A stretch of 32,000 nt of DNA, from contig OY969902.1 of NCBI GenBank assembly GCA_963704435.1, forward strand, positions 90,001 to 122,000, read 5' to 3'. The notes under the pieces were generated by a model. That model was not told the origin of the DNA. It saw only the letters and a program-made list of their open reading frames with translations, and searched no databases. The first letter of the stretch is position 1, and each line of letters starts with the position of its first letter. The position numbers were made by a program, and so were the translations under genes. Source of the DNA: an uncultured archaeon (GTDB lineage Archaea; Micrarchaeota; Micrarchaeia; Micrarchaeales; CABMGC01). Below are positions 4,632-24,588 of the stretch, piece after piece.

Positions 4632-5204
4632 ATGCAGCTGCTCAGGACCCAGATAGCCGAGGAGAAGGCGAAGCGCGCCGACCTCGTGGGTCAGTTCAAC
4701 AGGGTCAGGAACAAGCTCAGGTACAAGCAGGTGGAGCATGAGGCGCTGGCCAGGCTGCTCGCATCCGCGCCGCAGGAGGGGGGCCACAACGTAGGCCGCC
4801 TGAGGAGGATGAAGGAGAGCATAGAGTTCAGGATCGCCACGGAAGCCACGACCCTCAATGCCGAGAGGGAGCTGATAAAGCACCTGGGCGAGGTGAACGG
4901 CGAGCTCGAGGAGGCGCTCAAGGCCTACAGGTCCAGGAGGAAGTCCGAGCTGGTGGCCAAGGACATAGAGGAGCTCAAGCAGAGGTTCGACGAGCTCAGG
5001 AAGCAGATAGCGGAGTCCGACGGCAGGCTCGACGGCCTCTACGGCCGCCTGCGCGAGGAGACCGGGTGGGGCGACAACAGGTCGTCGTCAGCGGCCAAGA
5101 AGAAGCACGTGAAGCAGCAGGAGCCTCTGGAGATAAGCCTCGAGGACATCGCCACGATAAAGAGCAAGAAGCACAACGGCGACGAGAAGACTGACGGTGT
5201 TTGA
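4632..5204 (+). CDS. Coiled-coil protein of unknown function
   Basis: The 190-aa sequence is E/K/R/L-rich and heptad-like (LRTQIAEEKAKRADLVGQFNRVRNKLRYKQ...EELKQRFDELRKQIAESDGRLDGLYGRL). Its stop directly abuts the TTG start of the next gene. The frame is open back to 4542 but has no canonical start codon there. Confidence 0.6.
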   Translation: MQLLRTQIAEEKAKRADLVGQFNRVRNKLRYKQVEHEALARLLASAPQEGGHNVGRLRRMKESIEFRIATEATTLNAERELIKHLGEVNGELEEALKAYRSRRKSELVAKDIEELKQRFDELRKQIAESDGRLDGLYGRLREETGWGDNRSSSAAKKKHVKQQEPLEISLEDIATIKSKKHNGDEKTDGV

Positions 5205-6520
5205 TTGAGGATAACCTTCTACGGAGCGGCCGGGGAGGTCGGCCGGAGCTTCGTGCTCATAGAGAGCGGCGACACCAGGGTGGCGCTCGACGCGGGGGTG
5301 AAGCTCGGGGAGGTCGAGGAGCACCCGACCATAGACGACGCTGACCTCAAGGGCATCGACGGCGTCATACTCTCGCACGCGCACCTGGACCACTGCGGCT
5401 ACGTGCCGCACCTGTACGCCAGCGGCTACACGGGCTACCTCTACGCGACCAAGCCCACGCTGGAGCTGCTCAACGTGGTCATGACCGACTACGTCAACAT
5501 CTCGAAGCCGAAGGACGTCACGAAGGAGAGCCTGCAGAAGGTCGTCCAGCACTTCAGGATAGAGGAGTATTTCAAGGAGTTCAAGATAAAGGGAATGACG
5601 ATACGGCTGCTTCCGGCGGGGCACATACTCGGGAGCGCGATGATAGAGGTCAGCGACGGCAAGGAAAAGCTCCTCTACACCGGCGACATAAATCTCAAGA
5701 CGACGAAGCTGCTTGACGCGGCTTACACCGCGGACCTGAACGCCAACATACTGATAACGGAGAGCACGTACGGGGGGAAGAGCGACACGTTCCAGCCCGA
5801 GAAGGTCGTGCTAGGCAAGATGGTGGCGGACCTGAACGAGACGCTCAAGGCCGGGGGAAAAGTGATAATGCCGGTCTTCGCCGTAGGGAGGGCGCAGGAG
5901 GTGCTCTTCATACTTGACGACTACATAAGGTCAGGCGTGCTCCCGAAGGTGCCGATATACGTCGATGGCATGGTCAACAAGGTCGTGCGCATCTACAGGC
6001 ACAACGTCATATGCTGCAAGGAAGAGGTGCAGAAGCGCATACTCATGAGCGAGGACGATCCGTTCAAGAGCAAGAATTTCTACGTCGTGGGCGGAAGGCA
6101 GCAGAGGGCGAAGGTCCTCAAGGAGACGGGCGCGTGCATAGTGGTCACGACCAGCGGAATGCTCAAGGGCGGCCCGGTCGTCAAGTACCTAGAGAAGTTC
6201 GCGGGCGACTCAAACAACAAGATGATACTGGTCGGATACCAGGCGGTGGGCACGCCGGGAAGGGCGCTCAGGCCGGCACCAAGGAGATAGAGATAGGCGA
6301 TTCCAAGAAGAAGATAAAGATCGGGATGAAGGTGGCGTTCTACCACTTCTCTGCTCACGCGGACAGGCCGCAACTCCTCAAGCTGATAAGCAAGGTGAAG
6401 GGACTGAAGACCATATTCATAGACCACGGCGAGGAGAACAAGTCGCGCGAGTTCTACGACGAGCTGAAGCAGAAGTACGACGTCAGGCTTCCTGTCCTGT
6501 CGACCCCGTACGACGTGTGA
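5205..6520 (+). pseudogene. Metallo-beta-lactamase/beta-CASP ribonuclease (aCPSF2-like), copy 1, interrupted by a 1-nt frameshift
   Basis: It has the HAHLDH MBL motif and beta-CASP blocks, and is colinear with the intact paralog at 11955-13274. The reading frame ends at TAG 6288-6290, but the conserved C-terminus (QAGTKEIEIGD...FSAHADRPQLLKLISKVKGLKTIFIDHGEE...LPVLSTPY) continues in the -1 frame from 6269. Both halves appear as separate ORFs in the track (5205-6290 and 6011-6520). Confidence 0.85.
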
Positions 6521-6541
6521 GTTCAGATGCCCGCTGCAAAT

Positions 6542-6552
6542 CGGGCTTAATA
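6542..6552 (+). repeat. Left copy of the 11-bp direct repeat CGGGCTTAATA bounding the AT-rich island
   Basis: It is identical to 11447-11457. Extended leftwards the match is 16 nt with one mismatch (CAAA[T/G]CGGGCTTAATA). It coincides with the change in composition. Confidence 0.65.
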
Positions 6553-6571
6553 GAGGTTGTTCACAAAGTCA

Positions 6572-6605
6572 GACTTTTTAAACACATTCGGGACTTTTTA
6601 AACAC
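6572..6605 (+). repeat. Two direct copies of GACTTTTTAAACAC (island left subterminal repeats)
   Basis: Copies lie at 6572-6585 and 6592-6605, a 20-bp period. The same motif, in the same orientation, recurs three times at the right end of the island. Confidence 0.7.
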
Positions 6606-7377
6606 TTTTTTGCACTATTGGCGGATAGAAAAGAGAGATTATTAAAAAGTGATTCCACCTACTTTCAGTTCCAACAACAAAGTAAATATCTCTCTGTTGC
6701 ATCCAATCAAAATATCTATCACGTACCTTTCCAAAAGCGAGTTCGTCATTTCCAAGTTTTGCTCTTTCTGTCCTAAAAAGTTGTATCATTTCCCAATCTT
6801 CGCACATCAAATCGTGTCCACTGCATCTTTCATCGTTACAAGTAAAGCGATAACCCATCCAATAGGGTATTTTGTCTAAAGGAGATTTATATTGTTCTCC
6901 AAAGAGCATCTTCTGGGTTCCTTCTATTAGTTCCTTCTCCCAATCTCTGCAACTCTCAATTGGTTTTTTGTAGAAGTCAATAATCTTGGGCTTAATAATT
7001 CCTATTGTCTGCCTTTGCGAATCTCTTAGGTCTTCTAATTCCTCAATAGATTGATTCAGCTTAGGCAGAAGTAACCCTTTTCTATTGTCCCATTCAGGAC
7101 TTTTAAAAGAAGCCAATACCCTTATCGTTTTATCTATTACTTTGTGGCTTTCCTGTCTAAGGTATTTATCTTTGTGCGGTTCGGCCTCAACTTCTATGAC
7201 GTCAAATTTCTTGAAATGTTTATCCATAGGTAGTTTTCTATACATTATAGGAAACATTCGTATCCATTCATTAGTATCGAGATTTATGCCAGCTACACAA
7301 ACAGTCTCCTCATATTTTTCACTAAGGTTTGGATATGTTTTCGCTATTATTGCGATTTTCTTTTTTTGATATGTCAT
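6598..7377 (-). CDS. Hypothetical protein with a CX4CX2HX3C motif, co-operonic with the DUF488 gene
   Basis: The 259-aa ORF has uniform AT-rich codon usage and a 4-nt ATGA overlap with the upstream gene 7374-8174. It contains RFTCNDERCSGHDLMCEDWE, a possible zinc knuckle. I recognise no family. Confidence 0.7.
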   Translation of the reverse strand: MTYQKKKIAIIAKTYPNLSEKYEETVCVAGINLDTNEWIRMFPIMYRKLPMDKHFKKFDVIEVEAEPHKDKYLRQESHKVIDKTIRVLASFKSPEWDNRKGLLLPKLNQSIEELEDLRDSQRQTIGIIKPKIIDFYKKPIESCRDWEKELIEGTQKMLFGEQYKSPLDKIPYWMGYRFTCNDERCSGHDLMCEDWEMIQLFRTERAKLGNDELAFGKVRDRYFDWMQQRDIYFVVGTESRWNHFLIISLFYPPIVQKSV

Positions 7378-8174
7378 AAATCTATTACCTTAAATCCATC
7401 TTCGATGAGCCTTTTCTTAATTATGCTTCTATGACATTTTGTTATGTCCTTTTCAAAACACATAATTACTGTGGGTCTGACGTGGGCTAATCCTTCAAGA
7501 TCAGTCAAATACTCTTTTGCTTGTGGGGAGGAAAGCCATTTTGAATAATTTTCAAAAAACTCCTCGTAATTCCCTTCATTCCAAAGTTTATGCCGAAGTT
7601 CCCTTGGAGAACCTAATTCTTGAAAATGCCGATACACTATACCCTTTTCTTTCAAAGCGGTACTAAGTGCGGATTTTGAGTAGCCATTCTTCCTACTTAG
7701 TGCCAATTCCCTAACATCTATCAGGCATCCTATTTGATGCTCTTTCAAAATTTGAATGAGTTCTTGTAATTTTTTACCCTCGTAACCTATCGTAAATATC
7801 GTTACGCCCTTCTTTTCGAGGTACCAGTAGGTTGTGGCACCTTCTTTGCGTCTTTTGAGGCCGATTTCATTTTCTAATTGAGTTACCCATTTATTGTTAG
7901 GTACTGTCTGTTCCATATTTAGTTTTTTCCTAATTTCTTGCCAAGTAAATCCAGACTCTCGCGCGTTAAGAAGTTCCGTTAATTTTGACTTAAACTCAGT
8001 ATAGCTCAGGTCATACGTTTTCTTTACCAACAAACCTTCCGTAGTTATTTCTGTATTTAGGATTTCGCCTTCTTTCCATTTTAGCTTCTCTACCTCTTCA
8101 GGCGGAACTGTAAGTATCCACTTTGCATATTCCTTTCCCTTTAATTTGCGGGTAAGATGTCTTTGTAAGCGCAT
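7374..8174 (-). CDS. AbrB-like / winged-helix / DUF488 three-domain protein
   Basis: The N-terminus KEYAKWILTVPPEEVEKLKWKEGEIL resembles SpoVT/AbrB swapped-hairpin motifs. The middle region GFTWQEIRKKLNMEQTVPNNKWVTQLENEIGLKRRKEGATTYWYL looks like a wHTH. The C-terminus TIFTIGYEGKKLQELIQILKEHQIGCLIDVRELALSRKNGYSKSAL...GIVYRHFQELGSP...MCFEKDITKCHRSII matches DUF488 (PF04343) signature blocks. Confidence 0.8.
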   Translation of the reverse strand: MRLQRHLTRKLKGKEYAKWILTVPPEEVEKLKWKEGEILNTEITTEGLLVKKTYDLSYTEFKSKLTELLNARESGFTWQEIRKKLNMEQTVPNNKWVTQLENEIGLKRRKEGATTYWYLEKKGVTIFTIGYEGKKLQELIQILKEHQIGCLIDVRELALSRKNGYSKSALSTALKEKGIVYRHFQELGSPRELRHKLWNEGNYEEFFENYSKWLSSPQAKEYLTDLEGLAHVRPTVIMCFEKDITKCHRSIIKKRLIEDGFKVIDL

Positions 8175-8183
8175 GATTTCTAT

Positions 8184-8273
8184 TTAGGCGCCTAAATGTT
8201 TATATATCTTCCTATTAGGCGCCTAAACCTATTTATATCTTTAGGCACCTAATAATATTTGTTAGGCGCCTAA
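8184..8273. promoter_or_regulatory. Array of four 12-bp palindromes TTAGGCGCCTAA (putative operators) interleaved with TATA boxes in a divergent promoter region
   Basis: Copies lie at 8184-8195, 8215-8226, 8241-8252 (TTAGGCACCTAA, one mismatch) and 8262-8273. TTTATATAT at 8198-8206 is about 27 nt upstream of the minus-strand ATG at 8174, which fits a leaderless mRNA. ATTTATATC lies at 8231-8239, upstream of the plus-strand gene. Confidence 0.6.
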
Positions 8274-8294
8274 CAAATAGGACAGTGTATAAGT

Positions 8295-9491
8295 ATGGAT
8301 ACAAGAAGACAAAAAGCTGAACAGATCGCTAAGACAGAAACAATAAAGAAAGAAGGCAGGGGTTGGGTAGTTCCCTCTCAAAGCGGAAAGGGCTACTACA
8401 ATGTAGTGCAAGAAGGCACAGGTCTTGCCTGCACCTGCCCTGACTTTCAGCTAAGAGGTCAGCCCTGCAAGCACGTGCTTGCGGTTCAGATAGTGGTTCT
8501 GCGATGGTTCGACAAGAAAGGTAAACCCGTAATGGAAGTAAAGAGAGTGTCCTACCCTCAGAATTGGCACGCCTACAATGCCTCACAGATAAACGAGCAA
8601 GACCTATTTATGAAGCTGTTAGCTGACTTATGCCAAGATATAGAAGAGCCACTATACAAATTCGGAAGACCACAACTGCCACTAAAAGATATGGTCTTTG
8701 CGAGTGCCTTAAAGGTCTATTCGACCTTTAGCCTAAGAAGGTTTATGTCCGATATGCGAGCCTCTAAAGAAAAGGGCTTTGTAACTAAGGTCTCCTCTTA
8801 CAGTTCAGTAAGCAACTATATGAGAAGTGAGGAGCTAACGCCTATCTTGCAGAGCCTTATTTCCTTATCTTCTATGCCACTTAGGAGCGTAGAAACGAAG
8901 TTTGCCATAGACAGCACAGGGTTTAGAACTACACGATTTAACGACTATTGCAGAGAGAAGCACAACACAGAGAAACAGCATCAATGGGTTAAGGCTCATA
9001 TCTGCACAGGTGTTAAGACCAATATCATTACAGGGATAGAGGTAACGGAAGGCACAGGAGCGGACAGCTTACAGTTCATACCTCTTGCAGAAAGAACGCA
9101 TCAGAATGGCTTTAACATAGAGGAGATGAGTGCAGATAAGGCTTATTCAAGCAGAGACAACCACGCATACATAGCACAGATAGGTGGAACGCCTTTTATC
9201 CCTTTCAGAAAAGGAGCGACTGGCAAGCCAAGAGGCAGTAACCATATCTGGAGAAAAATGTATAACTACTTTGTCTATAACAAAGATGAGTTCTTGGAGC
9301 ATTACCATCTCAGAAGCAACGTGGAAAGCACAAATAATATGATTAAGGCAAAGTTTACAGATATAGTTAGAAGTAAGGATAAGATAGCACAGACCAACGA
9401 GGTATTATTAAAGATTTTATGTCATAATATTTGTGTAGTTATTCAAGAGATGCACGAGTTGGGAATAGAACCTAACTTCTTAGAGGGATAA
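8295..9491 (+). CDS. SWIM zinc-finger / DDE (IS4/IS5-like) transposase
   Basis: SWIM motif CTCPDFQLRGQPCKHVLAV. DDE candidates are FAIDSTGF, MSADKAYSSRDN and YHLRSNVESTNNMIKAKF (a Y-x2-R-x3-E-x6-K type C-terminal motif). Confidence 0.8.
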   Translation: MDTRRQKAEQIAKTETIKKEGRGWVVPSQSGKGYYNVVQEGTGLACTCPDFQLRGQPCKHVLAVQIVVLRWFDKKGKPVMEVKRVSYPQNWHAYNASQINEQDLFMKLLADLCQDIEEPLYKFGRPQLPLKDMVFASALKVYSTFSLRRFMSDMRASKEKGFVTKVSSYSSVSNYMRSEELTPILQSLISLSSMPLRSVETKFAIDSTGFRTTRFNDYCREKHNTEKQHQWVKAHICTGVKTNIITGIEVTEGTGADSLQFIPLAERTHQNGFNIEEMSADKAYSSRDNHAYIAQIGGTPFIPFRKGATGKPRGSNHIWRKMYNYFVYNKDEFLEHYHLRSNVESTNNMIKAKFTDIVRSKDKIAQTNEVLLKILCHNICVVIQEMHELGIEPNFLEG

Positions 9492-9493
9492 AT

Positions 9494-10321
9494 ATGTCTA
9501 ATCACACTTTAATTATCGGAGACTGCTCCAATATGAACGAAATTAAGAGTGGTAGCGTTCAACTTGTATGCACCTCTCCACCTTACTTCAATGCTCCTTT
9601 TGATTATAAGAAATTGTATAAGAGCTATGACCATTACTTAGAGATGTTAAGGAATGTAGCAAAAGAATTGTTTAGAGTAATAGCAGATGGCAGGATTGTT
9701 GCTCTGAATATAGATGATATGTTAGTAGATGGCGAGAAGTTCCCTATAATAGCAGATGCAACTAAAATCTTTCTTGATGCTGGATTCAGATACAGGGATA
9801 AGATAACGTGGAAAAAGCCAGATGGCTATTTGAGGATAAGCAGAAGGAGTGGAGTTATGATACAGCATCCATACCCTATGTATTTCTATCCTGATAACCT
9901 TCTTGAAAGCATAATAATATTCCAGAAGGGAAAGTTTGATTATAAATCAGTATCAGATGAGCTTAAAGAGAAATCTAAGATAGACATAGGCGAGTTTCAA
10001 AAGAAAGACTGGTATATGACTTTATGGTCTATGACAAATGTATTGCCTAATAGTGATTTGGAGAAGGGTATAGCGGCTTATCCAGATGAATTGGCATATA
10101 GAATAATCAAACTGTTTTCTTTTGTTGGTGATACTGTCTTAGACCCTTTCACTGGCTCTGGAACGACTATGAAGATAGCTCGTAAATTAGGAAGAAATAG
10201 TATTGGTATAGAAATGAAAAAAGACTTAATACCAATAATCAAGAGAAAGACAGGATTTGATGGTCAAGAAAAGCTATTAAATAATGATGACACTTTAGAT
10301 ATAGTAATCAGAAAGAAATAG
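9494..10321 (+). CDS. DNA methyltransferase, beta-class N4-cytosine/N6-adenine family (N6_N4_Mtase)
   Basis: Motif IV TSPPYFNAPFDY lies near the N-terminus and motif I VLDPFTGSGTTMKIARKLGRNSIGIE near the C-terminus, the beta permutation. SPPY is more typical of m4C enzymes than DPPY. The gene starts 2 nt after the transposase stop. Confidence 0.9.
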   Translation: MSNHTLIIGDCSNMNEIKSGSVQLVCTSPPYFNAPFDYKKLYKSYDHYLEMLRNVAKELFRVIADGRIVALNIDDMLVDGEKFPIIADATKIFLDAGFRYRDKITWKKPDGYLRISRRSGVMIQHPYPMYFYPDNLLESIIIFQKGKFDYKSVSDELKEKSKIDIGEFQKKDWYMTLWSMTNVLPNSDLEKGIAAYPDELAYRIIKLFSFVGDTVLDPFTGSGTTMKIARKLGRNSIGIEMKKDLIPIIKRKTGFDGQEKLLNNDDTLDIVIRKK

Positions 10322-10328
10322 TGTCATT

Positions 10329-11384
10329 ATGAAGATAACAGCTAAGATAATCAAAGGCATAAATTATAGTCCATTACTTTGTAGAAAACTAAGCAGTTAC
10401 AAGTTTAGTGAGCTTGAAAAGGCACTCTCTAAAGATGCTACATTTTTCCTTGACATAGACAAGCAAAACAAGATAGCGGTAAGCTGGTGGGTATCAGCTA
10501 AAAGAACGAGGTCTTATCCTTATGCAAGAGTGTATGACTCTTATGGTTTTTCTGGTAAAAAACTTACTATAATACCCATAGTAAAAGATGAAGGCTATGG
10601 TGGAGATAGAGACTTCTTGCAATGGGATACAATATCTCTTATGAGCTTACTTAAAATCTACGTCGTAATAGCATACTATAAAACTGCTTCTAAAAGCTCA
10701 AGATATGAGAGTAAGATTACAAATCAACGATTTGATATGCCATTTATTAAAGACCAGATTAAAGAACTTTTGAAATATCAAGATGACGCTCTACACTGGA
10801 ATTTAGACCAAATATCAAAGATACAAAAGATAGGTAATAATGCCATAAAATCTTATGAAGCACTATCTAAAAAACTTGGAGTAAAAATGCACTCTAAAGA
10901 GAAAGCAGAAAGAAGGATACACGAACTTATGAAGGATAAGGAGATGTTTCTTAAAACCTCAAGAGCGTTAGCAGTGATGGCCCAGAGCAGAGAGCGTTCT
11001 GTAACACATAAAGCTGAAAGTGTAGATGGGTCAAAATCAAGCCTTACTATCAGCAACTATCTTGGTGGCAACTACTACTTTACCTCTGATGAAGCAAGAC
11101 TAAGAAAGGGAAGGTTGTTTTTGGTAGAAGCAAAGAATACAAAGGAGAATAGGCTACCAAATAGAGAGGACATTAAAGACGGACTAATAAGAATGATTTT
11201 ATTCACTAATTTGGAGAAAGTAAGTATAAAATCTAAGGTTTATCCGATAACTCCTTTATTGAAACTAACCTCTAAAAAGAAATTTGTTATTGGAAAGAGA
11301 GACGCATTAGTGCTAAATATACTCAAAAAAGAAGCTAAATTAAATGGATTTAAAGTAGAAGTAAATGGTAAGCTCCTTAAATAG
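10329..11384 (+). CDS. Putative type II restriction endonuclease (PD-(D/E)xK candidate)
   Basis: The 351-aa ORF starts 7 nt downstream of the MTase. YFTSDEARLRKGRLFLVEAKNTKE fits a D...ExK nuclease core. The call rests on position and motif only; I recognise no family. Confidence 0.55.
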   Translation: MKITAKIIKGINYSPLLCRKLSSYKFSELEKALSKDATFFLDIDKQNKIAVSWWVSAKRTRSYPYARVYDSYGFSGKKLTIIPIVKDEGYGGDRDFLQWDTISLMSLLKIYVVIAYYKTASKSSRYESKITNQRFDMPFIKDQIKELLKYQDDALHWNLDQISKIQKIGNNAIKSYEALSKKLGVKMHSKEKAERRIHELMKDKEMFLKTSRALAVMAQSRERSVTHKAESVDGSKSSLTISNYLGGNYYFTSDEARLRKGRLFLVEAKNTKENRLPNREDIKDGLIRMILFTNLEKVSIKSKVYPITPLLKLTSKKKFVIGKRDALVLNILKKEAKLNGFKVEVNGKLLK

Positions 11385-11391
11385 TTAAATT

Positions 11392-11444
11392 GACTTTTTA
11401 AACAAAATCAGGACTTATTAAACAGAATTTGACTTATTAAACAA
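11392..11444 (+). repeat. Three direct copies of GACTT[T/A]TTAAACA[A/G] (island right subterminal repeats)
   Basis: Copies lie at 11392-11405, 11412-11425 and 11431-11444, a 19-20 bp period. They have the same orientation as the left-end copies and directly abut the right direct repeat. Confidence 0.7.
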
Positions 11445-11446
11445 AG

Positions 11447-11457
11447 CGGGCTTAATA
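11447..11457 (+). repeat. Right copy of the 11-bp direct repeat CGGGCTTAATA
   Basis: It is identical to 6542-6552 and is followed by GTTTATATAGG, a TATA-like box. Confidence 0.65.
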
Positions 11458-11690
11458 ACAACGTTTATATAGGTAGAACGCCATATTACTATCACTAGTA
11501 AGGGAGAAGGATAACGGAATTTACGTCAAAAATAAGACAACTTATTTTCTTAAATTCCTGGAAGTCGGGACCCGCTGACGCGGCCTCGTCTCTCCGGACT
11601 CGGTAGGGATTCGCAAGGATTCCTGCAAAACCAATCCAAAATCCCAGTCAGTAAAGCTAGAGAAAACAAAAAACAAAAAGAAGTGAAAAG

Positions 11691-13274
11691 ATGACTGAGA
11701 ACGTGACAGAAGGCAGAATGGATAATGAGAACCGCAGGAAAGTCCCATGGAACATATACCGGGACGAGCCTGGTTCGGAAAGGCGGCAGGATCAGAACGC
11801 CAAGAGGCGCGATTCCGCACCGCAGCAGAGGCCCGCGAGGTTCAACTCGCAGAGGCATCAGCAGCGCCACGAACAGCGCCCCAAACAGCATTTCGTGCAG
11901 AGGCCGGCGCCAGTTCCTGTTAGGAACACGCCAAGGCCGAAGGCAAAGGAGCGCATGACTGTGACTTTCTACGGCGCAGCAGGAGAGGTCGGCAGGAGCT
12001 GCGTGCTGGTAGAGAGCAAGAACACAAGGCTTATCCTTGACGCCGGCATAAAGCTGGGTGAGGTCGAGGAGCGCCCCGTGATAGAGGACAGCGAGCTGAA
12101 GCACATCGACGCGGTGGTGCTTTCGCACGCCCATATGGACCACTCGAGCTATCTCCCGCACTTCTTCTCCAAGGGATATACGGGGCCCGTCTACGCGACG
12201 AAGCCCACGTTCGAGCTGGTCGACATAATGACCAAGGACTACATGCACATCTCCAATCCAGAGGGCGTGACCAAGGACAGCGTGAAGCTGCTCTTCAAGC
12301 ACTGCAGGCCCGTGGAGTACTACAGGGAGTTCAGGGTGAAGGACTTAAGGATTCGCCTGCTCCCGGCGGGACACATACTCGGGAGCGCGATGATAGAGGT
12401 CAGCGACGGCAGGGACACGCTGCTGTACAGCGGGGACATCAACATGAGGAGCACGAAGCTCTTCGATCCCGCATACGACAAGAACCTGAACGCTAACGTG
12501 CTGATAATAGAGAGCACCTACGGGGGCAAGGCCGACGTCTTCCCTTCGGACAAGGACGTGCTCAACAAGCTCGCCGCAAGCGTGAAGGAGACGATAAACG
12601 CAGGGGGCAAGGTCATAATACCCAGCCTCGCGGTGGGGAGGGCGCAGGAGATACTGTTCACGCTGGACGACTACATCAGGTCGGGCATAGTGCCTAAGAC
12701 CCCCGTATACGTCGATGGAATGATTGGCAAGGTCCTCCGTATCTACAAACGCAACGTGCGCTACTGCAAGGACGAGATCCAGAGGAGAGTCAAGACCAAG
12801 AACAACGATCCGTTCGAGAGTAAGAACTTCACGATAATCGGGAGCAGGCAGCAGAGGGCGAAGGTGCTCGCGAGCGACGGCGCCTGCATAGTCGTGACCA
12901 CGAGCGGCATGCTCAAGGGAGGGCCGGTAATCCAGTACCTCGAGAAGTTCGCGGGCGACTCGAACAACAAGATAATCCTCGTCAGCCACCAGGCTGAGGA
13001 CACCCCCGGCAGGCAGCTGCTTAACGGATCCAGGGAGGTCGTGTTCGGGGATGAGAAGCTGAAGCTGAAGATCGAGGCGAAGGTCGAGTACATCCACATG
13101 TCCGGCCACGCGGACAGACCGCAGCTCCTCAAGCTGGTGAGCAAGGTCAAGGGCCTGAAGACCGTGTTCGTCGAGCACGGCGAGGAGGTCAAGGCGAAGG
13201 AGCTCTACGAGACCCTCAAGAACAGGTACGACGCGAGGCTTCCTGTCCTGTCGACCCCGTACGAGATAAAGTGA
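11691..13274 (+). CDS. Metallo-beta-lactamase/beta-CASP ribonuclease (aCPSF2-like), copy 2, intact, with a possible Arg/Gln-rich N-terminal extension
   Basis: HAHMDH motif, LLPAGHILGSAMIEV, ESTYGG, GRAQE, VVTTSGMLKGGP, HMSGHADRPQLL. By eye it is roughly two-thirds identical to copy 1 over the full length. The catalytic core starts at MTVTFYGAAGEVGRS (ATG 11955). Codons 1-88 are a low-complexity R/Q/P-rich region, so the start site is uncertain. Confidence 0.9.
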   Translation: MTENVTEGRMDNENRRKVPWNIYRDEPGSERRQDQNAKRRDSAPQQRPARFNSQRHQQRHEQRPKQHFVQRPAPVPVRNTPRPKAKERMTVTFYGAAGEVGRSCVLVESKNTRLILDAGIKLGEVEERPVIEDSELKHIDAVVLSHAHMDHSSYLPHFFSKGYTGPVYATKPTFELVDIMTKDYMHISNPEGVTKDSVKLLFKHCRPVEYYREFRVKDLRIRLLPAGHILGSAMIEVSDGRDTLLYSGDINMRSTKLFDPAYDKNLNANVLIIESTYGGKADVFPSDKDVLNKLAASVKETINAGGKVIIPSLAVGRAQEILFTLDDYIRSGIVPKTPVYVDGMIGKVLRIYKRNVRYCKDEIQRRVKTKNNDPFESKNFTIIGSRQQRAKVLASDGACIVVTTSGMLKGGPVIQYLEKFAGDSNNKIILVSHQAEDTPGRQLLNGSREVVFGDEKLKLKIEAKVEYIHMSGHADRPQLLKLVSKVKGLKTVFVEHGEEVKAKELYETLKNRYDARLPVLSTPYEIK

Positions 13275-17226: not shown

Positions 17227-18105
17227 CTAGCCGGGCACGGAATCAACCACTTGCCCGTTGGCTGCGCCAGCCACAGATGTCGCGTTCAGTCCCATCGATA
17301 TGGTGTATCCGCTCATGTTGAAGCGCGTCACGAAGCTCAGCGGCACGTAGTACATGTCTGATACGCACATCTCGAACGCGCCTACGCCAGACTGCGCGCC
17401 CGCATTGGAGATGGTGCCTGCGATGTACGTGCACGGCGTACCGTTGTACGAGCTCTGGTACTCGGTCTGGTAGTTCAGGGACAGGCCGTACGACGACGCG
17501 AGTGTCGACATCCAGTAGTTCACTGACGCGGCCGGGTCCAGTCCTGCCAGCGAGTCCGTCGACCTGCAGACGTTCTTGTGGCTGCCGAACAGGAATCCCA
17601 TTATGTCCTTGGTGTTCGCCTCAGACATGTTGAAGTTCTCGCACAGCTGTGCTCCTCCTGTGAGGTTGAGGTAGGCCACCTCTATGGGCCCCGCGATTGG
17701 GACTCCCGTCGCGTTGACCGCGAGCTTCACGTCGTTGTCGTACTTGTAAACTCCCGCGCTCAAGGGCGAAGAAAGGGATATGAAAGAGAAAAATCCTGAT
17801 GGCCTTGCCGATACCTCTCCGGCGTATGCTGCTGTGAACTGCGGCAGGCTGAAGATATTGCCTGCGGAAGCGGCCAGCGTTGCGGTAGCCGCCTGGCCGG
17901 ACTGCGATGTCAGGCCTGCGATGGCCGTCGGTACGACCAGCCCCGTGTTCGGGAAGACCGCCAGGCCGTACTGGTTGGTCGGCGCGCTTGGCGCGAACCA
18001 CGGAAAAGAGAATAGCGCTATCCCGAGCAGTGCGATTCCAATGAAAGCCTTCCCTGAGGAAGGACCTGCCGAGTTCGCGGATCCGTCTATGACCCTATTT
18101 CTCAT
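17227..18105 (-). CDS. Secreted or membrane-anchored surface protein, probably N-glycosylated; unknown function
   Basis: It has an N-terminal anchor FIGIALLGIALFSFPWF, a Ser/Ala/Gly/Thr-rich body, and multiple N-x-S/T sequons (NLT, NMS, NGT, NAT). Confidence 0.6.
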   Translation of the reverse strand: MRNRVIDGSANSAGPSSGKAFIGIALLGIALFSFPWFAPSAPTNQYGLAVFPNTGLVVPTAIAGLTSQSGQAATATLAASAGNIFSLPQFTAAYAGEVSARPSGFFSFISLSSPLSAGVYKYDNDVKLAVNATGVPIAGPIEVAYLNLTGGAQLCENFNMSEANTKDIMGFLFGSHKNVCRSTDSLAGLDPAASVNYWMSTLASSYGLSLNYQTEYQSSYNGTPCTYIAGTISNAGAQSGVGAFEMCVSDMYYVPLSFVTRFNMSGYTISMGLNATSVAGAANGQVVDSVPG

Positions 18106-18237
18106 GCAATCCCTACCAATAGTTGCCCAAAAAGGCTTATAGCCTTTAGTCCGTGGCGTCTAGCTGGGTGACGCGGCCATCTTGAACAGCCGTCAGGAGG
18201 TTGGTTTTATATACAGTGCTGGCCCATTATCTGTGAT

Positions 18238-18597
18238 TTGATGGCGCGGGAAGATTCTGACGACTTCGTTCCGATGCTCTTTAGGGGACTGATAGCCCTA
18301 TTCGTTTTCGTCTGTCTCGCTATCTTCGCGGGCGTAGTTCTCTTCGTTCTTCTACCTGGAGCCCTACTCTTGTCTGCGGGCCTTGGTTGGCACGCGTTCC
18401 TGGGCGTAATCGCGCTGATTTTCTTTGTCTGGCTGTTCTTCTGGTTCTTCAGGATGGTCTTCCGCGGGGCGCACGGACACCACCGCCATGGCTGGTACGC
18501 CGACGAGCGCGACATAGCAAGGAGGAGGTACGCGCGCGGAGAGATAACCCGGAAGGAGTACCTAGCGATAATCAAGGACCTCGACAGCACGAAGTGA
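18238..18597 (+). CDS. Small membrane protein with a C-terminal SHOCT-like motif
   Basis: It has two or three TM helices (LIALFVFVCLAIFAGVVLFVLL, VIALIFFVWLFFWFF) followed by ARRRYARGEITRKEYLAIIKDL, which resembles SHOCT. TTTTATATAC lies about 25-30 nt upstream of the ATG. Confidence 0.7.
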   Translation: MMAREDSDDFVPMLFRGLIALFVFVCLAIFAGVVLFVLLPGALLLSAGLGWHAFLGVIALIFFVWLFFWFFRMVFRGAHGHHRHGWYADERDIARRRYARGEITRKEYLAIIKDLDSTK

Positions 18598-18776
18598 CCT
18601 CCGGTCCCAAAGAGCTATTTCTACTAACGATCTTCCGTTTCACGAGCGCGCTGATATTCATCAAGCTCTTCTGGCGAATATTTGTATTTAGAGAAATCTC
18701 CAGGATAGGCAAGATAGGACAATACCCCCGCAAGCTACAGGGTAGTAGACGCGATTACTTTTAAGTTCCGTTTTTA

Positions 18777-19454
18777 ATGATAATCACGCCGAATAGTCAA
18801 CGTTTCACTAATAATACTTATAAACAGCCTAAATGTAATAAATGCAGTGAAATCGTGCAGAATCCAACTAAAAATATTCATTTAGGTAACAGAGGGCCGT
18901 ATGCGCAATTGGAAAATGAAATCGGAGAAATAAAAGGCTTGCGCGACTATAGAGAACTTAAAAGAGTAGTGATTTTCGCAGACGCATTTTCAAACGTTAT
19001 GCGTAAACCTAAGTACTTAAATGTTGTCGAAATGTTGGGGCTTAGCGACAAGGGCCGCGATGAGCTTCAGGGAATATATTCGGAAGTCATTGAACCCTTA
19101 GATCAAAAGCTTCTTAGCATCAGGTCCTTGGTGATAGGGACTAGGACAGATCACGGTTTGGGTGAAAATGTCGCTCCAGCAATAAAACCGACAGACGAAA
19201 CTAAAGATTCAGCAATAAAGGAATTTACAGACCTCTTTTCTGAAATGCTGAATAAAGACGACCTCAAGGATGAAATAAACATCAAGGCCGTCATATTATA
19301 TCCCTTAGTCCTAGCCGGCATAAATACATGGAGAAAATTTGACATGGACTTTGCAGGCAAACTAATAGAAAGAATAAAATCAAACGAGGAAAATCCAGAA
19401 TTAAGAAAGGCAATAGAAATTATAGACATACCTGTCGTTTCGTCTAGAAAGTAA
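18777..19454 (+). CDS. Hypothetical protein in an AT-rich islet
   Basis: The 225-aa ORF has AT-rich codon usage unlike the backbone. I recognise no motif, and the true start may be internal. Confidence 0.5.
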   Translation: MIITPNSQRFTNNTYKQPKCNKCSEIVQNPTKNIHLGNRGPYAQLENEIGEIKGLRDYRELKRVVIFADAFSNVMRKPKYLNVVEMLGLSDKGRDELQGIYSEVIEPLDQKLLSIRSLVIGTRTDHGLGENVAPAIKPTDETKDSAIKEFTDLFSEMLNKDDLKDEINIKAVILYPLVLAGINTWRKFDMDFAGKLIERIKSNEENPELRKAIEIIDIPVVSSRK

Positions 19455-19465
19455 TTAGGGGGTGT

Positions 19466-20112
19466 GGGGTCAAGGTATACCACGGGCTTTAGCCCGCGGA
19501 CAGGAATTGACCCCACTTTGAGTGTTCCTGCTCTATTTTTAACAAATTCTGAGAAGGATTAGCGACGGCAGTGTGGCCCCAGAATTTTTGCGGTCCTGAA
19601 GTTTCTGCCGCCGAAGTGTTATTGTGAATAGTGTAAACAATGTAAGGGATATAAAGGAAAGCGCGACGGCATGCATCCACAGGTACAACTGGCAGCACAT
19701 GGTTTTTGTGTCGAAATATCGATACAGGATGTTCAAAAATCCAGAGACCTGCCGAATAATACACGATGCGATTTATGACGCCGCGCGTAGACATGGAATC
19801 GGAATTAAAGAATTCGCTGTCGGAGAAGACTTTCAACACGTGCATCTTGAGATTGACGTACCAAATACTATGTCAGTTTCAACCGCGGTGCAACTGCTGA
19901 AGGGATATTCGGCGTACGTGGTCTTCAAAGAAATGCCAAACCATCGACTTAGGTATTGGAGAGGGCATTTCTGGAGTGAAGGATACAGTAACGGAAGCGT
20001 AGGCCCTCAGAACGAGGAGACGATACAAAATTACATCAGAAAGCAGGATCAGTACGGACAAATGAGACTTGCCGCCTAGAGCGCAGGGGATACCCCCGAC
20101 TTTAGTCGGGGG
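19466..20112 (+). mobile_element. IS200-type insertion sequence (tnpA only) with subterminal hairpins
   Basis: The left structure is GGGGTCAA(19466-19473)...TTGACCCC(19507-19514), enclosing the hairpin CGGGC-TTTA-GCCCG (19483-19496). The right hairpin is CCCCCGAC-TTTA-GTCGGGGG (20093-20112). Both loops are TTTA. The size of about 650 bp fits IS200. The exact ends are not determined. Confidence 0.6.
19624..20079 (+). CDS. tnpA: IS200/IS605-family Y1 (HUH) transposase TnpA
   Basis: WQHMVFVSKYRYRMF, the HUH motif QHVHLEIDVP, LKGYSAYVV, HFWSEGYSNGSVG, and the catalytic Tyr region IQNYIRKQ. The start is GTG. Confidence 0.85.
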   Translation: MNSVNNVRDIKESATACIHRYNWQHMVFVSKYRYRMFKNPETCRIIHDAIYDAARRHGIGIKEFAVGEDFQHVHLEIDVPNTMSVSTAVQLLKGYSAYVVFKEMPNHRLRYWRGHFWSEGYSNGSVGPQNEETIQNYIRKQDQYGQMRLAA

Positions 20113-20174
20113 AGGAGGTCATTTCTATGGAAGCGTAACGCGCGGCATGGCCTATGCTGCCTTACGATATTCCT

Positions 20175-20246
20175 TGCCGCAGGCAGGATTTGAACCTGCG
20201 ACTTTCCGGTCTTCAGCCGGACGCTCTCCCACTGAGCTACTGCGGC
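20175..20246 (-). tRNA. tRNA-Phe (anticodon GAA)
   Basis: The reverse complement folds as acceptor GCCGCAG/CTGCGGC, D arm GCTC-AGTGGGA-GAGC, anticodon arm TCCGG-CTGAAGA-CCGGA, T arm GCAGG-TTCAAAT-CCTGC, discriminator A. Confidence 0.9.
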
Positions 20247-20327
20247 GCAGCAGCTACTAATTGTCGTGGATATTTATAAAGCTTTAATTCTTTTGCAGCC
20301 AATTTCCCTGCAGGTGATGCCGGTCTT

Positions 20328-23685: not shown

Positions 23686-24588
23686 TCAGTCCGCCTTAGC
23701 GGATTTGCCATACCTTTTGTTGTCTTTTGTATATCTTCTAAAGAACCACTGCAGGAACGGTCCGTCAACGCGCTTGATATGTGACCTTTCCAGCGCAGTG
23801 TAATAGCTCGCCCTGTTCTCATACGCTATGTTGAGCATAGGATAACGATGCCTGTTCAGTGCAAAGTTCATGAGCAGCCTCGATATCCTGCCATTCCCGT
23901 CCGTGAACGGGTGGATGGTCACAAACTTCAGATGCGCCAGTGCAGCCAGCTCTACCGGATGCAGCTTTCCCTTGCTCCTATCGTACCACCTGAAGAATTC
24001 CCTAAAGAGGGGATGCACTTCGACGGGAGGGGGAGGAATGAATCTGCTGCCTGATATGTATATCTGGTGGTCCCTGATTTTTCCGGCAACATCCGGTTTT
24101 GTGTCCTTTAATAGCTCATAGTGCCATTCCAGAACCCGATTCGCATTCAGATCTCCTTTGTGCGATAGCATTTTATAAAATACTCTCTTGTGCGCCTCGG
24201 CCTCTCTCACATCGCGCAGAGGCTTATTCTTCGGAGTTGCTTCATGAAGGAGAAGCGCAGCCGTTTCCTTGAAGCTTAGCGTCGATCCCTCTATCCTTTG
24301 CGTATCGTAGGTAAATTTTATCATGAAAGACTCAACATACTTTTCCACCGCTTCCTGCGGCATCAATTCTTGCTCTTTACTGAACCCCTGTTTTATTGTG
24401 TCGAACTGCGAATACCATTTTTGCTTGTACAGTTCAAAAACAAATTCACGCTTTATCGTCTCGATATCCTTCGGTATGTTTCTGCCCAGATATCTCTCTT
24501 TCTTGAGCACCCTGCCTTTAATCCTGTAAGGATGCTCAAGATAGTAGTAAGCATTGCCGTTAATCATCTTCCGTTTTATCGTTACCAT
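23686..24588 (-). CDS. fic: Fic-domain protein (AMPylase family) with an N-terminal inhibitory-helix motif
   Basis: It has the canonical Fic motif HPFTDGNGRISRLLMN (HxFx[DE]GNGRxxR). TQRIEG matches the [ST]xxxE[GN] auto-inhibitory motif of class II Fic proteins, with a Fic_N-like N-terminus. Confidence 0.9.
   Translation of the reverse strand: MVTIKRKMINGNAYYYLEHPYRIKGRVLKKERYLGRNIPKDIETIKREFVFELYKQKWYSQFDTIKQGFSKEQELMPQEAVEKYVESFMIKFTYDTQRIEGSTLSFKETAALLLHEATPKNKPLRDVREAEAHKRVFYKMLSHKGDLNANRVLEWHYELLKDTKPDVAGKIRDHQIYISGSRFIPPPPVEVHPLFREFFRWYDRSKGKLHPVELAALAHLKFVTIHPFTDGNGRISRLLMNFALNRHRYPMLNIAYENRASYYTALERSHIKRVDGPFLQWFFRRYTKDNKRYGKSAKAD

Follow-up and report, generated by a model that had tools for sequence, protein, structure and literature searches.

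The closest described relative of the gene pair studied here is PDC-M19, which was assigned as a candidate system by a "guilt-by-embedding" screen that took genes nested in restriction-modification (R-M), BREX, and DISARM loci (Payne et al. 2024, bioRxiv 10.1101/2024.01.29.577857). Our pair, genes A and B, lies in a 32,000-nucleotide (nt) stretch of DNA from an uncultured archaeon of the Micrarchaeota (contig OY969902.1, positions 90,001 to 122,000; hereafter the window), and it was originally predicted, from the letters of the DNA, to be an undescribed defence or DNA-surveillance module. The two Pfam families to which its products belong, DUF488-N3a and DuOB, reportedly stem from work by Burroughs and Aravind in 2023, the abstract of which is said to predict that the RapZ-C/DUF488/DUF4326 clade includes DNA-end-processing enzymes of virus-host conflict systems. 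The best-supported reading of the locus, to which we give about an even chance, is that of a mobile-element-borne conflict module, an anti-virus candidate that belongs to PDC-M19 and travels as cargo of an IS5-like transposon.

The two genes form a real, functionally coupled, co-translated module. The stop of gene A is joined to the start of gene B by a 4-nt ATGA overlap (TTATGACA) on the same strand (coordinates in Table 1), as the original prediction had noted when it proposed co-translation. Across species-representative genomes, a homologue of gene B was encoded at 56 loci, with hosts among DPANN archaea, Bathyarchaeota, Thermoplasmata, methanogens, and many bacterial phyla. A DUF488 gene lay directly beside the gene B homologue in 53 of these loci, and the remaining three, with no adjacent DUF488 gene, were contig edges or fragments, so that the expected co-occurrence of the two genes in other genomes was borne out by the neighbourhood check. 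The commonest order was A then B with the same 4-nt overlap; in Planctomycetes the order was reversed, B then A. Nearly all DuOB-linked partner proteins (49 of 52) were members of the N3a subclade. Fusions of DUF488 with DuOB were also found, namely two 409-amino-acid (aa) proteins (P0064 and P0065) in A-then-B order, in which the B part occupied residues 153-403, and these fusions, together with the adjacency, upheld the proposal of a functionally linked module.

The claim that the pair was undescribed did not survive. Both genes matched PDC-M19 models in PADLOC, and dedicated Pfam families exist for both (DUF488-N3a and DuOB); the pair is therefore already catalogued. PDC-M19A matched gene A (PDLC04505, 2e-36; PDLC04504, 2.3e-23) over aa 120-258 only, and PDC-M19B matched gene B (PDLC04508, 1.3e-55) over aa 4-256. 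Because the PDC-M19A model aligned only at its positions 145-283 of 294, that is, with the DUF488 part of gene A, the head of gene A represents a different architecture. The likeness to PDC-M19 thus comprises matches to both sets of models, the same two-gene order, and adjacent R-M genes, whereas the AbrB-winged-helix head, the archaeal host, and the placement of the pair inside a transposon set the locus apart. With the two Pfam families, the pair shares both the domain families and the conserved set of Cys, His, and Arg residues. A full-text literature search for PDC-M19 and DuOB found nothing relevant. Possibly new are the AbrB-winged-helix fusion with its operator code and the fixation of the module in an IS5-like transposon family of DPANN archaea.

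Gene A had been read as an AbrB-like motif followed by a winged helix and a DUF488 domain, and this reading proved essentially right. Pfam DUF488 matched aa 135-256 (E 2.7e-30; 105.9 bits against a cutoff of 22.2), and DUF488-N3a, described as the "active DUF488-N3 subclade", matched with 35.7 bits (cutoff 27; E 1.2e-8). The AlphaFold2 (AF2) model (pLDDT 87) consisted of a beta-rich head (residues 2-52), a helical bundle plus beta hairpin (58-119), and an alpha/beta part (125-265). Isolated N-terminal segments of gene A had no match in Pfam, even at E<=10. Support for the AbrB-like head was indirect: it aligned with the N-termini of related DUF488 proteins (hhalign 94.7%, E 6e-8), and PF04014 (MazE_antitoxin/AbrB) was found in 8 of the 52 DuOB-linked DUF488 proteins; two database relatives, P0174 and P0175, combine PF04014 with DUF488. 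In the middle part, modelled as helices (58-103) and a beta hairpin (106-119), Foldseek recovered the winged helix-turn-helix of Rpc34 (2dk8, probability 1.00) and ArsR (6j05, 0.98), and a PNN-W motif was nearly invariant in the homologue alignment.

The C-terminal part of gene A retains conserved residues that are putatively catalytic. Seven motifs were invariant in 36 homologues of gene A (GYE, DVRE, SRK-G, Y-H, GSP, C239-x-E241, and C247-H-R249), and most of these residues were still invariant, or nearly so, among the 52 DuOB-linked homologues from archaea and bacteria. The putative catalytic set C239, E241, C247, H248, and R249 is retained in gene A, and this part has many basic residues as well as the invariant Cys, Glu, His, and Arg. 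Foldseek matched this part to phosphatases of the protein tyrosine phosphatase (PTP) fold (8dhj, 0.98; 3ro1, 0.96) and also to tetrapyrrole-methylase-like folds, which agrees with the rhodanese-phosphatase superfamily in which Burroughs and Aravind reportedly placed DUF488. The original prediction had stated that DUF488 has no established biochemical function; correspondingly, a literature search on DUF488 and YeaO found no biochemical characterisation and no experimentally established activity.

The 259-aa product of gene B had been taken for an orphan, a view overturned by its match to PDC-M19B, by a match to Pfam DuOB (PF22557.2; 25.5 bits, just below the cutoff of 27), and by its 76 close homologues and 3,259 homologue cluster representatives at E<=1e-3 in a library of 1.84 billion proteins. 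A database protein identical to gene B, P0001, has a precomputed match to PF22557.3. We are confident, on the basis of the AF2 model (pLDDT 90.7, pTM 0.88), in predicting a tandem-OB protein with two oligonucleotide/oligosaccharide-binding (OB) folds. The best Foldseek matches of the model in the PDB were all tandem-OB proteins that bind DNA or single-stranded DNA ends, namely TEBP-alpha (telomere end-binding protein alpha), RPA, HIN-200 (IFI16/AIM2/p204), and POT1, with probabilities of 0.99-1.00; a sequence search of the PDB with the gene B profile yielded noise only (E > 0.4). Like these proteins, which include the innate-immune DNA sensors AIM2 and IFI16, gene B is predicted to have two OB barrels, but with no sequence similarity (7-14% identity) and low TM-scores the resemblance is a functional analogy only.

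Conservation in gene B pointed to a putative zinc site that differs from the proposed CX4CX2HX3C knuckle. The first three ligands of that motif were conserved (C180 in 44 of 48 sequences, C185 in 39, and H188 in 47), but the fourth, C192, was present in only 28 of 48. The invariant residues were C27, R40, R74, E76, and W195. Because C27 is invariant and C192 is not, a site composed of C27, C180, C185, and H188 appears likelier than the knuckle as originally written. The putative site falls in the second OB fold; RPA70 DBD-C has a similar zinc site.

The AT-rich island that contains the pair is a discrete IS5-like transposon carrying both the pair and an R-M system. The prediction of a mobile, AT-rich island beside R-M genes was supported by a GC content of ~35% against ~60% in the host, by a perfect 9-bp target-site duplication, and by the methyltransferase and endonuclease genes downstream of the transposase (Table 1). 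The terminal repeats, read outward, were GACTTTGTGAACAACCTC on the left and GACTTATTAAACAAAGCG on the right and were imperfect; the left repeat matched the right end, and also the family consensus GGCTTTG..., at 10 of 16 positions, and the right end fitted the ...GCAAAGC(C/T) ends of related elements (L001, L002, L016, and L017). Subterminal GACTT(T/A)TTAAACA repeats numbered two on the left and three on the right. Two independent assemblies have contigs that end at the borders of the element: one corresponds to 6523-11478 of the window (L057; the element with ~30 nt on each side) and the other to 6552-11451 (L058). When metagenome contigs were searched for an empty site, using a 20-mer across the target sequence predicted for the unoccupied state, the only match was an unrelated chance one, and no RNA genes were found within the island.

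The transposase matched Pfam DDE_Tnp_1 (5.3e-20) and SWIM (2e-8). Its score against NCBIfam IS5_2 (131.5 bits) was below the cutoff of 140, and the family-level name IS5 is therefore insecure. With insertion sequences of the IS4/IS5 superfamily that carry passenger genes, such as transporter insertion sequences and unit transposons with R-M cargo, the element shares DDE_Tnp_1, inverted repeats, and the 9-bp duplication; it differs from them in the N-terminal SWIM finger, in the sub-cutoff IS5 score, and in a core that includes a divergent DUF488-DuOB operon and an operator array.

Table 1. Coordinates of the transposon, its genes, and its repeats, in positions of the window.
Feature	Position	Strand	Basis or remark
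Whole transposon, ~4.9 kb, GC ~35%	6553..11448	.	GC profile, contig borders
Left 9-bp target-site duplication GGCTTAATA	6544..6552	.	Perfect direct repeat
Right 9-bp target-site duplication GGCTTAATA	11449..11457	.	Perfect direct repeat
Left terminal inverted repeat, degenerate GAGGTTGTTCACAAAG, and two subterminal repeats GACTTTTTAAACA	6553..6604		
Three subterminal repeats GACTT(T/A)TTAAACA and right terminal repeat ending ...AAACAAAGCG	11392..11448		
Gene B, open reading frame (ORF) for the 259-aa dual-OB (DuOB) protein	6598..7377	-	PDC-M19B-like
Gene A, ORF for the 266-aa AbrB/MazE-like + winged-helix + DUF488-N3a protein	7374..8174	-	PDC-M19A-like
DUF488 catalytic domain, gene A aa 125-266, PTP/rhodanese-like fold	7377..7802	-	Invariant residues, Foldseek
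Winged helix-turn-helix, gene A aa 57-120	7815..8006	-	AF2, Foldseek
AbrB/MazE-like swapped-hairpin domain, gene A aa 1-55	8010..8174	-	AF2 beta-rich, hhalign
Four 12-bp palindromes TTAGGCGCCTAA, presumed operators	8184..8273	.	At 8184, 8215, 8241 (one mismatch), and 8262
SWIM zinc finger + DDE (IS4/IS5-type) transposase	8295..9491	+	Divergent from gene A
Type II N6/N4 DNA methyltransferase	9494..10321	+	Pfam N6_N4_Mtase 4e-43; PADLOC MTase_II 4.7e-73
Type II restriction endonuclease	10329..11384	+	PADLOC REase_II PDLC03572 6.2e-91; no Pfam match

Related elements indicated that the core of this transposon is stable and the remainder is not. Seven Micrarchaeota loci encode an A protein of the 266-aa architecture, and in all of them a homologous transposase lay divergent from gene A at the same distance. 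Three of these elements (L001, L002, and L016) had inverted repeats matching at 14-16 of 16 positions and starting (A/G)GCTTTG, with perfect 9-bp target duplications (CTGAAGCCT, CAACTCAAC, and GATGGATCT). The transposase, A, and B were constant, and the linkage was kept down to 33-69% transposase identity; the remaining cargo was variable, from none in L017 and one small ORF in L016 to a methyltransferase-Mrr fusion in L001 and a methyltransferase plus further genes in L002. In the independently assembled L058 (ENA contig_105740), the DuOB-DUF488-transposase segment (6552-9499) was 100% identical to the window, whereas the R-M segment (9500-11451) was ~80% identical, with 10-27% mismatches, indels, and broken ORFs. 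That the switch falls exactly at the start of the methyltransferase suggests an exchange of modules, not a uniform decay.

The nearest transposase homologues outside the pair-carrying set (64-72% identity) had other neighbours, and the transposase family has > 7,000 members. We therefore rejected the idea that the pair is required by this transposase family; since the nearest homologues lack it and the family is very large, the pair is recurrent cargo and not a requirement for transposition. At the three loci with the closest homologues (L064-L066, 2293-4000; 71-72%), two divergent genes stand upstream of the transposase, their products (234 and 235 aa) matching no family, and the spacer contains, by eye, a tRNA-like sequence, so that the same transposase lineage occurs there in another neighbourhood.

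Gene A and the transposase are separated by 120 bp, in which the palindrome TTAGGCGCCTAA occurs four times against 0.11 expected; it occurs nowhere else in the 32 kb. The copies lie on either side of the TATA-like boxes in the two divergent promoters, that of gene A and that of the transposase. In 7/7 related elements (L001, L002, L003, and L015-L018, at ~7100-7190), the same places hold TTAG-NNNN-CTAA sites, two to four per element, and their centres, palindromic or nearly so, varied from element to element (GATATC, GACGTC, GGTACC, and GGYRCC; GGCGCC in the window). Such an array is what one would expect of operators that serve a dimeric repressor specific to each element, and the AbrB-winged-helix head of gene A is the obvious candidate to bind TTAGGCGCCTAA. 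The original prediction saw in the domain fusion a sequence- or modification-sensing regulator or effector; autoregulation through the four TTAGGCGCCTAA copies would explain the N-terminal domains better. A promoter and terminator scan used bacterial models and was uninformative for an archaeon. The 6-bp cores of the palindromes also resemble classical restriction sites, for which a co-evolving repressor specificity and a link to R-M recognition are both conceivable.

Beyond the Micrarchaeota, the neighbourhoods of the pair were in keeping with the predicted defence and mobile context. Among 150 ORFs flanking the pair, two per side, the families found most often, as raw counts without background correction, were DDE_Tnp_1 (8), N6_Mtase (5), N6_N4_Mtase (3), ResIII (3), and Eco57I (3), with two each for Methylase_S, HsdM_N, MmeI_Mtase, and HNH; R-M genes and transposases were thus among the commonest neighbours by these counts. 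Plasmids (22, of which 11 are conjugative) and temperate phages of Gordonia terrae (7 records) also carry homologues of gene B. At one locus on a Pseudomonas plasmid, the pair is accompanied by a separate AbrB gene and by a HEPN/Toprim-associated gene, and SocA/Panacea antitoxin-type domains were found in 2 of the 52 partner proteins.

Individual mobile elements offered further observations. In the seven Gordonia phage records, among them phage Eviarto (MH479912; L059, 3030-5277), the gene annotated as immunity repressor is immediately followed by the DuOB gene, and a 150-aa DUF488-N3a gene is convergent to DuOB and close to the integrase; lysogeny regions of temperate phages often carry prophage-encoded defence genes. 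On the Sulfolobus islandicus plasmid pSOG2 (L060, 3998-5358), a DuOB homologue stands beside an integrase and is followed by a gene for a 168-aa protein, which was considered as a DUF488 protein and rejected as such. This protein has, by eye, a D...ExK motif reminiscent of PD-(D/E)XK nucleases. The occurrence of DuOB with a non-DUF488 neighbour suggests that DuOB may be a nucleic-acid-binding subunit that pairs with different effectors. At one archaeal locus (L007, 5863-7026, minus strand), a PD-(D/E)XK nuclease (PDDEXK_1, 1e-28) is divergent from the pair in the place of the transposase.

The observations above establish the conserved module with its folds and fusion proteins, the transposon, and the operator array; from them we infer what the pair binds, which reaction it catalyses, and that it acts in defence. 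The gene B protein, probably stabilised by a Cys3His zinc site, would bind single-stranded DNA or DNA ends, such as those of foreign DNA that is invading or being replicated, or ends left by restriction, and would partner physically with the gene A protein, presenting the bound DNA to the Cys-dependent DUF488 enzyme. The DUF488 domain, PTP/rhodanese-like and with a strand-end Cys239 and Arg249, would then act on a terminal phosphate or sugar of the nucleic acid and leave the foreign DNA unfit for repair, ligation, or replication. The AbrB-winged-helix head may meanwhile bind the four TTAGGCGCCTAA copies, repressing its own operon and the divergent transposase. As R-M systems create DNA ends, the association of the pair with R-M genes fits a model of end binding and processing.

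Several points weigh against a conflict module. Within the Micrarchaeota clade, the pair is locked to a transposase and not to a host defence island. Most other flanking matches were single housekeeping genes, and the neighbourhood counts over the 150 flanking ORFs were not background-corrected. PDC-M19 has no more than candidate status in Payne et al. (2024), and PDCs in general are described as not validated. DUF488 is without a known substrate, and the structural matches of gene B had TM-scores of 0.24-0.36 (E ~1e-4), low values by which the fold class is established and the ligand is not. The N-terminal domain of the transposase itself could bind the operators instead of the head of gene A.

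The main alternative, which we regard as unlikely, is that in this lineage the pair serves the element and not immunity. The AbrB-winged-helix-DUF488 protein would be the repressor of the element and, together with DuOB, would protect, heal, or limit the ends or gaps that arise in DDE transposition. Such a role would suit a core of transposase, A, and B that stays fixed in eight diverged elements (33-69% transposase identity) as other cargo varies, operators that sit between the transposase and gene A promoters, and the retention of the three-gene core in L058 at 100% identity beside a decayed R-M part. It accords less well with the wider distribution, as only 7 of the 56 pair loci have this transposase and the pair also resides in the immunity regions of phages and on plasmids that carry tyrosine integrases, and the absence of the pair from the closest transposase homologues in so large a family indicated that transposition does not need it. 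A parallel to the DUF488-transposase linkage, which favours this alternative, comes from E. coli, in which deletion of yeaO, a DUF488 gene, led to CRISPR spacers acquired almost only from insG, the IS4 transposase gene, and the authors suggested that YeaO restrains IS4 mobilisation (bioRxiv 10.1101/2024.05.24.595836). YeaO belongs to the same Pfam superfamily as gene A, and the genetics hint that it is linked to an IS4-type transposase, but it is probably a minimal DUF488 protein of a different subclade. We take it to be a single-domain protein of ~115 aa that has no DuOB partner.

A bolder form of this alternative would make the Micrarchaeal pair an integral control and end-processing module of the DDE transposon, not simple cargo, in which gene A represses the transposase through the palindromes and acts with DuOB on the transposition ends. 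We consider it clearly unlikely; if true, DUF488 would gain its first biological function, in line with the yeaO/IS4 observation.

The antitoxin-type domains in the family suggested another possibility, addiction or counter-defence, in which the pair would stabilise the element in the manner of a toxin-antitoxin system, with the MazE/AbrB-like head as antidote or regulator, or would shield the DNA of the element from host nucleases. MazE/AbrB-type N-termini (8/52), SocA/Panacea domains (2/52), and the separate AbrB gene on the Pseudomonas plasmid are consistent with it, as are the almost exclusive carriage on mobile elements and the pairing here with an R-M system, itself an addiction module. 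Compared with MazEF-like systems, however, the MazE-like domain is fused to the DUF488 enzyme and is not a separate, labile antitoxin, neither protein contains a toxin family recognisable by Pfam or PADLOC, and many A proteins of the family (150-200 aa) have no such N-terminal domain. This possibility is, on balance, distinctly improbable. That the pair performs housekeeping nucleic-acid repair or RNA processing and lies in the island by coincidence is scarcely credible, for although OB-fold proteins and phosphatase-like enzymes are common in repair and many flanking genes elsewhere are housekeeping, the pair is scattered patchily over distant phyla of archaea and bacteria, is carried by phages and plasmids, and lies here inside a transposon with target duplications and a 25-point GC difference from the host.

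DUF488 is very widespread and has no demonstrated activity, and PDC-M19 is one among many defence candidates. The locus lends itself to testing, being compact and well delimited: within 4.9 kb and between clear ends lie an intact R-M system, a predicted DNA-sensing OB subunit, a putative Cys-dependent enzyme, and an operator code that can be read. How such modules spread in small genomes is illustrated by their fixed linkage to a transposase in DPANN archaea, and this linkage, together with the yeaO/IS4 hint, suggests an alternative, testable role in the handling of transposon DNA ends. If the pair is a conflict module carried as cargo and nothing besides, the locus would add one more instance, if a slightly unusual one, to a candidate system that is already catalogued.

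Other features of the window were observed outside the transposon. The element is flanked by two paralogous beta-CASP/metallo-beta-lactamase genes (4632-6520 and 11691-13274; 74% DNA identity), both of which give partial, sub-cutoff matches to the aCPSF1 model. Only the right copy is intact (527 aa); in the left copy the frame shifts near 6259 and is apparently interrupted by an in-frame stop at 5202-5204, which makes it either a pseudogene or the product of an assembly error. A 300-aa Fic/DOC-domain protein (23686-24588, minus strand; Pfam Fic 5e-23) is encoded in a lower-GC region and may represent another conflict-related or mobile gene. A second low-GC stretch (18100-20250; 42-48%) contains ORFs with no Pfam match, such as 18777-19454, and ends at a tRNA-Phe gene (20175-20246, minus strand); this stretch may be another integrated element, inserted at the tRNA gene.

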